Positions 17,242 through 21,289 of a stretch of DNA of 33,898 nucleotides are shown here, piece by piece (position 1 is the first letter of the stretch; each line of letters opens with the position of its first letter). This DNA is from Candidatus Micrarchaeota archaeon. GTDB lineage: Archaea > Micrarchaeota > Micrarchaeia > Anstonellales > Bilamarchaeaceae. Location: the NCBI GenBank assembly GCA_043827025.1, contig JBDRPL010000018.1:1-33898 (forward strand). The letters run 5' to 3'. The position numbers and the translations under genes are program-made. The notes beneath the pieces are model-generated. The model searched no databases, was not told where the DNA came from, and was given only the letters and a program-made list of their open reading frames with translations.

Positions 17242-18627
17242 TCATACGATTTCACCTTTTTTGTTTCTTAGAATATAATATACGCCCCTATATCTCCCAA
17301 TTTTTTCTAAATAACCAAATTTGAGCATCTCATTTATTTCAGCCACTGCAGTTCCAAAGGAAATCTTATTCAGTTTCATGTACATTTTTGTCTTTATTGA
17401 TTTGTTTTTCTGGAGGAATTCAATGCTTCGTATCTGCCTTTCATTCAAATCAGCATATGATTGTATTGCCTTAAGTTTGCCTTTTTTATTTCGCAAGATT
17501 ACTCTAAAGAATAGTTCATAAATGCCAAATTCCGGATCCTGTAATCCGTATTCTCTCATGCCATTAATCATGCGTGGCACTCCTGATCCCAATCCTTCTA
17601 CATAACCATAATCTCTCAATAGCCTATATGTTATTGGGTTCCTTCTTACAGATATTGTTCCAAAAAGTTCCTTTGTTAATCCTTGAGGTAAAGAACCAGG
17701 GTTTGTTATTTCTATCCTGTCATCAAAAAGATATATCTGGATAGAATCTTTGCTGAAATAATCCCTGTGAGCAACTGCATTTACTATCGCTTCTCGGACT
17801 ACCTCTATGGGATATTGATATTTTTCTTCTCTTTTAGCATCACCCTTAATCTCTATGCTTCTTGGCAGATTGGACTTTATGAAGGCCAGCGACCTTTCTA
17901 TGGATTCAATTAAATCTGCCTGAACGAGTTCATGTGAGACAATTTTTACCGGTTCAATTCCTTCAAATCTCACAAGTTTGATTTCTATTTGTGGATACAA
18001 CATAACTGGATTTTTAGCAAAGAACAGGAGTGTTGCATTTTTTATCCTAAGTTCTCCATCTTTTGTAGCAAGTTGCATGCTTACCAGGAAGTCTTCCAAG
18101 GAATGCACATCCAGAAACTCCTGCTGTCTTCTGATCTTCAGATATTGCCTTACCTTTTCAATATCTATCTCCTCAATTGTTCTGCTGTTGGGGGTTTCGT
18201 CAAAACATAGGATCTGTTTTGCCCTGAGAAAATCAACCATCTGGTTTCCTTCTATTTTTTTCAGCGTGCTGCCAACCTTAACATATATGACTCCTTGAAA
18301 AGTATGGAACGTATTATCTATCGCTTTTTGTATAGTTACAGCGATAATATCCTTGCCGTCAACTTGAACTACTTCTACTGTTGGTATAACCGGAGAGGAG
18401 ACAGCCTGTGCAGATGCTGAAATTTTTTGTTGGACGGCATCAACGTCTTCTTGGATGCCAATAATTGTTTTTACGGAATTTACGCCAACAAGGATTACTC
18501 CTCCGTAGGTATTGGCCAGTGCGCACATGATTTTTGAAAACTCCTGAGAACTGTGAAATGATTGCTTGAGTTCAACTTCCTGGGATTCGCCACTTTCGAT
18601 TATTCTCATCAATCTTTCCTTTTCCAT
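17242..18627 (-). CDS. AlbA_2 (Schlafen-like) + HATPase_c_4 + C-terminal HTH protein
   Basis: GESQEVELK, CALANTYGGVILVGV; REAIVNAVAHRDY, IEITNPG, RRNP, YVEGLGSG; C-terminal winged-HTH-like region. Confidence 0.92.
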   Translation of the reverse strand: MEKERLMRIIESGESQEVELKQSFHSSQEFSKIMCALANTYGGVILVGVNSVKTIIGIQEDVDAVQQKISASAQAVSSPVIPTVEVVQVDGKDIIAVTIQKAIDNTFHTFQGVIYVKVGSTLKKIEGNQMVDFLRAKQILCFDETPNSRTIEEIDIEKVRQYLKIRRQQEFLDVHSLEDFLVSMQLATKDGELRIKNATLLFFAKNPVMLYPQIEIKLVRFEGIEPVKIVSHELVQADLIESIERSLAFIKSNLPRSIEIKGDAKREEKYQYPIEVVREAIVNAVAHRDYFSKDSIQIYLFDDRIEITNPGSLPQGLTKELFGTISVRRNPITYRLLRDYGYVEGLGSGVPRMINGMREYGLQDPEFGIYELFFRVILRNKKGKLKAIQSYADLNERQIRSIEFLQKNKSIKTKMYMKLNKISFGTAVAEINEMLKFGYLEKIGRYRGVYYILRNKKGEIV

Positions 18628-18905: not shown

Positions 18906-19679
18906 ATGGATATTGGCATGTATGACAAGAAATTAGTCTGTAATTACAAAAGCAAATCACAGATTGCAAGAGTTCTCACGGAAAATTGGTTCTTGCGACA
19001 AATGTATTGTCCTAATTGTCTGGCTTCTCCAGTGAACAAAGAAAAAGATAATTCTAAAGTTGTTGATTTTTCCTGTTTTTACTGCAGACGTTTCTTTCAA
19101 CTTAAAGGCCAGAATAAGAAATTTGGTCTAAAAATGAATGATGGAGCATACTCTCCAATGATTGAACGAATTGAAGCAGGTAAGTCTCCAGATTTTTTCT
19201 TTATGGAATATACTCCGGAGGAATATGTCGTTAAGAATCTTTTGTTAGTCCCATCTTTTTTTGTGACTTCTTCTGTAATTGAGAAAAGAACTCCTTTGTC
19301 AAAGCATGCCGTAAGGGCAGGATGGACTGGTTGTAATATTTTGCTTTCCAAGCTTCCGGAAGAAGGAAAAATAACTGTAATAAAGAACGAAAGAGAAATA
19401 GAAAAGGAAGAAGTAAAACGAGTTTATCATAAGTTGATTTTCTTAGAAGCAGAGAAACCTACTCAGAGAAGTTGGATTACAGATGTCTTAAGATGTGTTC
19501 AAAACTTGGACAAAGAAAACTTTGTACTTGATGAAGTTTACTGTTTTGAAAATGAACTGAAGCAGTTATATCCAAATAATCTGCACATTAAGGATAAAAT
19601 ACGTCAGCAGTTGCAGATTCTAAGAGATAAAGGAATTTTGGAGTTTGAAGGACAAGGAAAATATAAACTTAGAAGGTGA
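18906..19679 (+). CDS. DpnI-family (Dam-replacing) methyl-directed restriction endonuclease
   Basis: YKSKSQIARVLTE, YCPNC, DFxCxxC, FQLK, DGAY, RAGWTGCNI, and C-terminal wH motif KDKIRQQLQILRD. Confidence 0.93.
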   Translation: MDIGMYDKKLVCNYKSKSQIARVLTENWFLRQMYCPNCLASPVNKEKDNSKVVDFSCFYCRRFFQLKGQNKKFGLKMNDGAYSPMIERIEAGKSPDFFFMEYTPEEYVVKNLLLVPSFFVTSSVIEKRTPLSKHAVRAGWTGCNILLSKLPEEGKITVIKNEREIEKEEVKRVYHKLIFLEAEKPTQRSWITDVLRCVQNLDKENFVLDEVYCFENELKQLYPNNLHIKDKIRQQLQILRDKGILEFEGQGKYKLRR

Positions 19680-19893: not shown

Positions 19894-19935
19894 ATTGAAG
19901 ATCCAAGACTCAAGACGCTGTACACTAGACCAAAA
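19894..19935 (+). repeat. Short heptamer repeat tract
   Basis: ATTGAAG ATCCAAG ACTCAAG ACGCTGT ACACTAG ACCAAAA. Confidence 0.55.
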
Positions 19936-19943
19936 AGATAAAT

Positions 19944-20205
19944 TGGGCCCGCCGAGATACTCATTGTTCTCAGTTTTCCGTATGGTGTTTCGAAATCTGA
20001 AAACACTTTGAATTCCCGAAACTTTTGGACTGATTGTTTTTGATGAAACTTTTTCCAAAAAGTTTCCTCGGGACCTACGGCTGCCCTAGACCGTATTAGA
20101 AACTCATTTTTAGGAAGTTTTTGATGAAACTTTTTCCTAAAAAGTTTCTTGTATTAGACGGGGTCATATAAGACCGTCGCTCTAACCGGGCTGAGCTACG
20201 GGCCC
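19944..20205 (-). tRNA. tRNA-Ile(UAU) with three introns (37/38, 53/54, 59/60)
   Basis: Exons 20205-20167, 20082-20067, 20012-20007 and 19957-19944 join to GGGCCCG TA GCTC AGCCCGGTTA GAGC G ACGGT CT TAT AA GCCGT AGGTC CCGAG TTCAAAT CTCGG CGGGCCC A (75 nt, complete cloverleaf, no encoded CCA). Each junction lies in a BHB or BHB-like motif. Confidence 0.92.
20036..20148. repeat. Palindromic element shared by tRNA introns 1 and 2
   Basis: GTTTTTGATGAAACTTTTTCC(T)AAAAAGTTTC at 20036-20066 and 20117-20148. Confidence 0.9.
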
Positions 20206-20232: not shown

Positions 20233-20240
20233 ATTTTTAA
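20233..20240 (-). promoter_or_regulatory. Putative TATA box of the tRNA gene
   Basis: TTAAAAAT on the minus strand, 28-35 nt upstream of tRNA position 1. Confidence 0.5.
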
Positions 20241-20248
20241 TGCTGATT

Positions 20249-21289
20249 CTAGAGCCTTAGCTTTCCCCTGAACTTTATGTATGTCGAATACTCGATATAC
20301 TGCTTCTTGGCGATAAAGTCCTGCACAGTTGGCGCAAGCTTCTGCACAGAGGTTATCCTGTCTGTGACAGTTATTGCAAATGAATCGCTTCCTGCACCGC
20401 TTCCGAAAGAAGTGACCAATATCTTATCCTTTGGCTTTGCAACATCAAGAACTGCTGCCAATCCAAGCATAGCTGCTCCTGAATAGGTATTTCCAATAAC
20501 AGGGGTCAAAAGACCTGTTTTTAATTTCTCAGGAGGAATGCCAAGCTGTTTTGCCATTGCCAATGGGAATTTTGCATTTGGCTGATGAAAAACAAAGTAA
20601 TCGTAATCTTTCACAGTTGTCCCTGTTTTTTTGAGCAGAGCTTCAGTTGCACTGCCTACATGTTTGAAATAAGCTGGTTCGCCTGTGAACCTTCCCCCAT
20701 GCGACGGATAGTGGGCATGTTGCCTTCTCCAGAAATCAGGCGTATCTGTTGTAAATGAAACTGTTGCATCAATGGTTGCAACGGATTCTGAATCCTTGCC
20801 CATTATGAAAGCAGCTGCACCGCTTCCTGCTGAATACTCAAGCGCATCCCCAGGCCTTCCCTGTGCAGTGTCTGAACCAATACTCATGCCATAATCTATC
20901 ATACCTGAATCTACCATTCCACAGGCTATTTGTATGCCTGCTGTCCCTGCCTTGCATGCAAACTCAAGATCAGCTACAGTTAGATTAGGGGTGGCCCCAA
21001 TTGCCTCAGCAACGATTGTTGCAGTTGGCTTCACAGCATAGGGGTGACTTTCGCTTCCAACATAAAGGGCACCTATTTTCTGTGGATCGATCTGAGCGCG
21101 TTTCAAGGCATTTCGTGCAGCTTCAACTCCAAGCGTTGCCGCATCTTCGTCTATGCCTCCAACTGCCTTTTCAATTATCCCAAGGCCCTTCTCTATTCGT
21201 TCCCTTTCCTCTCCCCAGACCCTTGCAATTTCTTCTGTCTTTATTCTGTAAGTTGGAACATGAACTCCATAACCTATTATTCCTGCCAT
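20249..21289 (-). CDS. Archaeal hydroxymethylglutaryl-CoA synthase
   Basis: [59 protein letters not shown]. Confidence 0.96.

Follow-up and report, generated by a model that had tools for sequence, protein, structure and literature searches.

A three-intron tRNA-Ile(UAU) gene lies on the minus strand (positions 20205–19944) of the analysed window, a 33,898-nt stretch of DNA from Candidatus Micrarchaeota archaeon. Its sequence lets us assign it with high confidence as a functional gene and as the single UAU gene of this genome. Two of its introns carry copies of one hairpin module that also stands at the head of many other tRNA introns of this family.

The four joined exons gave a 75-nt sequence, which ARAGORN called as tRNA-Ile(tat) with anticodon UAU. 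A purpose-built tRNA-profile search, in which long insertions were allowed and no boundaries were supplied, was run with or without a reward for BHB motifs. With the BHB term it recovered the identical three introns and a cloverleaf with 21/21 stem pairs. When this term was left out, the locus reached 56.2 bits and 21 pairs, versus 24.2 bits and 13 pairs for the best match in the control (reversed genome, one strand). The original prediction had given the same three introns with the same lengths (84, 54, and 49 nt), their junction motifs, and a 75-nt product; at the level of sequence all of these were confirmed, intron 1 having a strict BHB and introns 2 and 3 relaxed motifs. Its caution that standard scanners may miss the gene holds for the two that were run, since ARAGORN reported 0 genes on the raw window and Rfam 0 matches at gathering score. 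The locus has what is found in archaeal EndA-spliced multi-intron tRNA genes: a cloverleaf, a BHB motif at every junction, and genes for EndA and a ligase in the same genome.

Table 1. Features of the tRNA-Ile(UAU) locus in window coordinates, in the direction of the minus strand.
Feature	Positions	Strand	Description
Upstream neighbour	20249..21289	-	Archaeal HMG-CoA synthase (PRK04262, E 2e-172); context only
Candidate promoter	20233..20240	-	TATA-like A/T run, 28–35 nt upstream of the tRNA; suggested by position
Exon 1	20167..20205	-	39 nt; tRNA positions 1–37, including anticodon UAU
Intron 1	20083..20166	-	84 nt, canonical site 37/38; strict hBHBh'
Module insert	20101..20150	-	About 50-nt hairpin at the tip of intron 1; fold z -4.4; 0/200 shuffles fold equally well
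Exon 2	20067..20082	-	16 nt; positions 38–53
Intron 2	20013..20066	-	54 nt, site 53/54; relaxed HBh'; hairpin module at its start
Exon 3	20007..20012	-	6 nt, TTCAAA; T-loop positions 54–59
Intron 3	19958..20006	-	49 nt, site 59/60; bulge-helix-loop motif
Exon 4	19944..19957	-	14 nt; positions 60–73, discriminator A73, CCA not encoded
Candidate terminator	19932..19943	-	T-rich tract directly 3' of the gene; putative

A/T runs similar to the candidate promoter were also present upstream of several orthologues. Just downstream of the tRNA, a DpnI-family nuclease (18906–19679) and a Schlafen/AlbA_2 protein (17242–18627) are encoded, possibly forming a small defence island.

All three introns have a central helix with 4/4 pairs, in one strict and two relaxed motifs. 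The BHB of intron 1 is composed of a 4-bp central helix, a 4-bp intron helix, and a 5-bp exon helix. In ViennaRNA folding its probability was 0.00, it was not part of the lowest-energy fold, and forcing it cost 8.2 kcal/mol; because the median cost for the 37/38 BHB over 85 orthologues was 8.0 kcal/mol, this value is typical and not special. A BHB intron nested inside intron 1 was considered and rejected, as no convincing motif was found. In intron 2 the central helix is formed by positions 48–51 and the 3' end of the intron and is followed by an 8-bp intron helix, without an exon helix. Intron 3 has a 4-bp central helix, a 3x1 internal loop, and a 9-bp intron helix; its 5-bp exon helix is the T-stem, which is available only once intron 2 has been removed. 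No relative of the intron 3 sequence was found anywhere else in the genome.

The first base of intron 2 is G, and therefore the upper bulge can slide, one base in either direction at similar folding energy. With both bulges open, the minus-one register was at 2.8 versus 4.0 kcal/mol for the correct one. Cleavage in the minus-one register would remove G53 and U54 and leave a 73-nt product with a broken T-arm. This register is impossible in six orthologues because their intron 2 begins with C or T. The correct register fits the preference of the genome for A as the first bulge base (22/39 at 5' sites and 28/39 at 3' sites). The central helix also covaries, position 50 being in a C-G pair here and in G066, a genome of the same genus, and in a G-C pair in the other six orthologues, and three of the seven orthologous 53/54 introns have just 3/4 central pairs.

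The original prediction implied that such a layout is rare. This did not hold: a triple-intron gene with a 6-nt exon is already known and not unique. The orthologue scan covered at least 120 stretches, 80 of which were analysed, with a pattern that required intron-start letters, so it cannot show the 37/38 intron to be universal; in unbiased sets this intron was present in 11/11 and 18/18 genes. Of 91 tRNA-Ile(UAU) calls, 81 distinct genes were kept after the exclusion of 8 incomplete or mis-called entries and 2 duplicates. Three or more introns were called in 17 of the 81, at least one of these calls being wrong (a spurious one at L059), and the 53/54 intron occurred in 7 of the 81. With G066 there are eight tRNA-Ile(UAU) genes with the 53/54 intron, this gene included; all eight have a second T-loop intron, and the TTCAAA hexamer of exon 3 is identical in six of the others. 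One tRNA-Ile(UAU) gene (L053) has four introns. In this genome, 35 of the 41 catalogued tRNA genes are interrupted and five of the 41 (Ile-UAU, Glu-CUC, Arg-UCU, Asp-GUC, and Pro-UGG) have three introns, in a catalogue in which some boundaries are imprecise and which does not include a Val-CAC gene seen in the genome. Its tRNA-Pro(UGG) gene has the identical 53/54 and 59/60 pair flanking TTCAAA, and in five family genes for tRNA-Pro(GGG) the T-loop arrangement is again identical. The same pair of T-loop positions was described for ARMAN-2 tRNA-Pro(GGG) (PMC3239211), three introns per gene is the maximum reported for Thermoproteales (PMC4033280), and most tRNA genes of soil Asgard archaea are interrupted (PMC11291895). 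Given these precedents, the layout is of a known kind.

ARMAN-2 shares with this organism the phylum, the enzyme type, the pair of T-loop positions (hence the 6-nt exon), the UAU anticodon, and the lack of TiaS. Unlike in ARMAN-2, a single gene here combines both T-loop introns with the canonical intron, its T-loop motifs are relaxed where those of the ARMAN-2 tRNA-Pro were described as strict, the introns are longer and bear a repeat module, and the proportion of interrupted genes is 35/41 versus 56%. In Asgard genomes, as here, tRNA genes are mostly interrupted and many introns are missed by standard tools (PMC11291895; bioRxiv 10.64898/2026.10.13.758758).

A feature absent from the original prediction is that introns 1 and 2 share a module, identical at 31 of 32 nt (20148–20117 vs. 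the start of intron 2). It consists of a hairpin that contains T and A tracts and of a ATCAAAAAC-like tail behind it, and it starts at the first base of intron 2. The copy in intron 1 has complementary ends and is flanked by two TCTAATAC 8-mers (20158–20151 and 20100–20093). The 37/38 intron is 24–48 nt long in most family orthologues and reaches 84 nt here through the inserted module; most Micrarchaeota orthologues retain its TCTAATAC-type core. Comparison with these relatives suggests that the module is a later insert in an old intron 1. In G066, intron 2 is 46 nt long and almost the same in sequence, the intron-1 module is present in shortened form, and the third intron is unrelated to that of the present gene; on a contig of a related strain, assembled from an independent run (X3), 26 nt of the intron-1 module are missing. 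Because the G066 copy is shortened and the related-strain contig is without these 26 nt, the insertion into intron 1 predates these strains. The two TCTAATAC copies were found in this gene alone among 32 Micrarchaeota rows. Their interpretation as a target-site duplication is unproven, as orthologues carry a native CTATACG-like word at this place and G066 is without the second copy. The 37/38 intron of tRNA-Ile(UAU) also has a 5' GNCC word which, like the TCTAATAC-type core, is conserved across Micrarchaeota and which can pair with positions 29–32 in an alternative hairpin. We speculate that the word or the core might serve an intron-dependent modification of U34.

Such sharing is widespread in the genome. 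Among 59 introns, 25 fall in 8 sequence families, versus 0 in 20 shuffles; the largest family has 8 members, among them introns 1 and 2. A structure descriptor of the module gave 35 matches in the genome versus 13 in the reversed control; all but one of its 11 perfect-stem matches are within or next to tRNA genes, two of these 10 being antisense. The exact module pattern was present in 41 of the 99 family genomes, with 20 copies in genome G068, and the reversed pattern had 0 matches. Copies in relatives were sampled as the first match in each of 30 genomes plus the 20 copies of G068, several rows being classed by eye. In this sample, the module occupied the first bases of a tRNA intron in 20/30 and 13/20 copies, respectively, at sites which include 15/16, 37/38, 53/54, 54/55, and 58/59 and in more than 10 tRNA types. 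Of the other 17 of the 50 copies, 3 lay within introns in antisense orientation, 6 next to tRNA genes (5 of them antisense), 2 in 16S/23S genes, and 6 away from RNA genes. One G068 copy, situated at the end of a gene, is flanked by 17-bp direct repeats. The outermost pair of the hairpin, which was left free in the search pattern, was Watson-Crick in 26 of 27 copies, with four pair types. The 3' ends of module-headed introns were tested for adaptation to their sites and gave a mean of 2.8 versus 2.1 central pairs (8/5000 shuffles); the test was motif-free and used 14 of 27 rows from a caller with visible boundary errors, so that its support is modest.

Several further arrangements were recorded. 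In G068, the tRNA-Glu(UUC) gene L191 (G068:C7:15086-15863) has introns at 15/16, 37/38, and 54/55 that are all module-headed. The 16S rRNA gene of the present genome (C24, about 22635–22590, minus strand) contains an insert of about 45 nt headed by a module variant; in relatives, module inserts are found within 23S (L161) and at a different site of 16S (L147). Three copies of the module in this genome sit behind an 11-nt duplicate of the tRNA 5' end. By raw count, 9 of the 41 tRNA genes have an 8–14 nt copy of their own 5' end a little upstream with a hairpin between (in the 190 nt upstream; C25:36758, C32:53550, C6:11822, C26:9017, C35:4298, C19:16625, C9:46935, C5:33119, and C5:116587); the module is carried by three of the nine, and an acceptor-like stem can re-form in several of the rest. 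An IS200 tnpA gene has a left flank that resembles the intron start of tRNA-Val(CAC) (C9:20000-20080 and C25:57013-57212), a module type which differs from that of introns 1 and 2 and which L186 also has in its 59/60 intron. Two contig ends hold the 3' part of tRNA-Tyr with its 98-nt 59/60 intron (C4:1-217 and C31:3988-4113), either as an assembly overlap or as an integration repeat.

Our tentative proposal is that new BHB introns in Micrarchaeota are founded by the hairpin module, acting as a small mobile element of DNA. In the equally tentative founder scheme, its first base would become the 5' splice site, its 5' arm would provide the intron helix, and its variable tail would pair with the host exon. 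The occurrence of copies in both orientations and at sites outside introns argues for movement as DNA or via a DNA copy. Hairpin repeats of the REP, PATE, and MITE types are moved by Y1 (IS200/IS605) transposases. The module resembles them as a short non-coding conserved hairpin, multi-copy and in both orientations, and Y1 transposase genes are present in the genome. Unlike in such repeats, ends common with an autonomous Y1-transposase element were not found: no module lies at the ends of the IS200 tnpA copies on contigs C6, C9, and C1, two of these copies being cut by contig ends. The flanking duplications also vary (8, 11, or 17 nt, or none at intron heads), and the copies concentrate at intron starts. 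Classical MITEs, which depend on a DDE transposase, have terminal inverted repeats and a target duplication of fixed length; of the copies here, the one in intron 1 has complementary ends. On contig C6 a module lies 400 nt upstream of tnpA, beyond a tRNA gene; tRNA-Arg(CCU) and an IS200 tnpA are about 0.8–1.5 kb from endA (C6:9124-11822). The single reverse transcriptase gene found (L211:1080-2184, contig C11) is split in two frames of 152 and 201 aa.

Alternatively, the module may have spread only inside whole introns that were copied between tRNA genes, by Thermoproteales-type intron transposition or gene conversion, and have no DNA mobility of its own. We regard this as a serious possibility: the perfect-stem copies of this genome lie almost all in or beside tRNA genes, the majority of the copies sampled in relatives begin at the first bases of tRNA introns, and no examined IS200 end bears the module. 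Against it, sharing is limited to the 5' module, whereas the 3' part depends on the host site; some copies lie antisense within introns, beside tRNA genes, in 16S/23S, or away from RNA genes; and one copy has 17-bp direct repeats around it, while three copies in this genome have an 11-nt tRNA 5'-end duplicate in front. Multi-intron tRNAs and intron transposition are known from Thermoproteales (Sugahara 2008; Fujishima 2010; as summarised in PMC4033280 and PMC4090602). As there, genes of this genome have up to three introns, and similar introns recur across tRNA genes and positions. The differences, as far as these summaries go, are in the enzyme type and in the shared unit: in this family it is a hairpin module that heads introns or lies within older ones and that also occurs antisense, in rRNA genes, and outside RNA genes. 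Copying of whole introns confined to splice-competent sites, which is how we read the reviews, was not what we found. Movement as DNA or via a DNA copy would be more than the transposition of whole introns which these summaries describe for Thermoproteales (PMC4090602, PMC4033280). Full-text literature searches, with subscription papers and bioRxiv supplements outside their scope, found no paper describing the module.

On the order of splicing, the original prediction was that intron 2 should leave first; a preference of this kind is supported in part, whereas an obligatory order is unsupported. From the folding calculations, intron 2 is probably removed before intron 3, because its central helix occupies positions 48–51 and blocks the T-stem needed by the 59/60 motif. 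With intron 2 present, the T-stem had a probability of at most 0.01 in all 8 orthologues; after its removal, the probability was 0.61–0.88 in seven of them and 0.08 in the eighth. Forcing the intron 3 motif in this gene cost 2.2 kcal/mol before and 0.5 kcal/mol after removal of intron 2, and the third-intron motif became cheaper in the same way in 7 of the 8 orthologues. The third intron of G066 occupies 58/59; since G53 takes part in its central helix, this helix is complete only after intron 2 leaves. On the folding model, the place of intron 1 in the order is unconstrained.

The folding does not make this order obligatory, because intron 2 is without an outer helix and the central helix of intron 3 is already formed in the precursor of this gene (p 0.87). 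It is possible, if rather doubtful, that the introns are spliced as described with no fixed order, the epsilon2 enzyme cutting introns 2 and 3 either way round, if a central helix and one good bulge suffice for it. Intron 2 has to be cut in any case, although it is without an outer helix, and removal of intron 3 first raises the intron 2 helix probability from 0.61 to 0.93. In a red alga, a three-intron tRNA-Ile(UAU) undergoes ordered removal, which was demonstrated and tied to BHB stability, and two of its three introns are removed either way round (PMC3728597). Unlike the motifs of the alga, which fold independently according to that report, two motifs compete here for T-stem bases. Arguing for the preferred order are the one-sided 3x1 loop of intron 3, its outer helix, which is absent until intron 2 is gone, the fall in its motif cost, and the G066 helix.

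The prediction that such a gene needs a broad-specificity EndA agrees with the gene content of the genome (1.33 Mb, 91.6% complete). It encodes on contig C6 an epsilon2-type EndA of 392 aa, a full-length match to the ARMAN-2 enzyme 4FZ2 (E 1e-131), which keeps Y160 and K161 of the ARMAN-specific loop (ASL), K224, and a D357 equivalent. By this enzyme the host belongs in Micrarchaeota. The ARMAN-2 enzyme is reported to cut strict and relaxed motifs and to depend on these residues (PMC3239211, PMC12397907). An RtcB RNA ligase gene is also present. Contig C11 (L002:1456-1893) encodes a 145-aa protein with a weak match to the C-terminal domain of tRNA intron endonuclease (E 4e-4, below the Pfam cut-off) and no significant BLAST similarity to the main EndA.

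AUA is the commonest Ile codon in the long open frames of this genome (10,572 of 24,566). The TiaS domain (PF08489) had no match in the 91.6% complete genome, whereas 4 archaeal control genomes score. The 41-gene catalogue contains no tRNA-Ile2(CAU) and only two CAU genes, whose stems suggest elongator and initiator Met. At this completeness, the absence of TiaS and tRNA-Ile2(CAU) is not proven. Since no TiaS was found, tRNA-Ile(UAU) probably reads AUA, and as no other AUA reader was found among the 41 catalogued tRNA genes, the gene is probably essential. The combination of a UAU gene with neither TiaS nor tRNA-Ile2(CAU) detected agrees with ARMAN lineages, for which tRNA-Ile(UAU) was described as paired with TiaS loss (PMC3239211).

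A pseudogene, or an artefact of assembly from tRNA pieces and repeats, is a very improbable reading of the locus: the gene was missed by scanners, and assemblers can be confused by repeats, but the spliced tRNA has all its stem pairs, G066 and six further genomes share the layout, partial matches to the locus occur in independent runs, and no second AUA reader was found. The orthologues largely refute this explanation; run X1, which covers the locus without differences, is possibly the source of the assembly itself and hence is not counted as support. An even more remote alternative is a T-loop exon TTCGAA (19994–19989) within intron 3, with introns of about 72 and 31 nt, which is favoured by the profile search without BHB terms but leaves 2/4 pairs in the intron 2 central helix, loses the outer helices of intron 3, and disagrees with the 53/54 orthologues, where TTCAAA immediately follows a CGGAA-type intron end.

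In the pathway that we propose, a precursor of at least 262 nt would be transcribed, and the epsilon2 splicing endonuclease would cut its one strict and two relaxed BHB motifs, the 53/54 intron leaving before the 59/60 intron as the preferred order. The exons would be joined by RtcB, CCA would be added afterwards, and the product would decode AUA codons, replacing the agmatidine tRNA-Ile2 system. Judged from relatives, the 37/38 intron appears to be old, and the 53/54 intron, which other Micrarchaeota also have, may have been founded by, or copied with, a hairpin module of roughly 30–50 nt. A second copy of the module would have entered the tip of intron 1 later, before the split from the same-genus species, and the 59/60 site was apparently occupied by unrelated sequences in different lineages.

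Repeat-derived introns are a variant of the known intron transposition and bear on the open question of intron origin. A 2026 preprint on Asgard archaea treats the arrival of tRNA introns as still open and, in the text available, reports no route; its main text does not mention Micrarchaeota, and it finds almost no intron families across tRNA types, which are common here (bioRxiv 10.64898/2026.10.13.758758). Standard tools undercount the tRNAs of Micrarchaeota, with 22 ARAGORN calls versus 41 catalogued genes in this genome. The gene is a clean natural substrate for asking whether two overlapping BHB motifs force a splicing order, and it also suits the question of whether a sliding bulge still lets the epsilon2 enzyme choose the correct register. 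In this family, introns at numerous sites start directly with the module, so that insertion events can be traced between strains. If the mobile-module proposal is true, the gene shows two stages, a module-founded 53/54 intron and a later passenger copy in the old 37/38 intron, and the module would be a concrete, testable route of archaeal tRNA intron gain.
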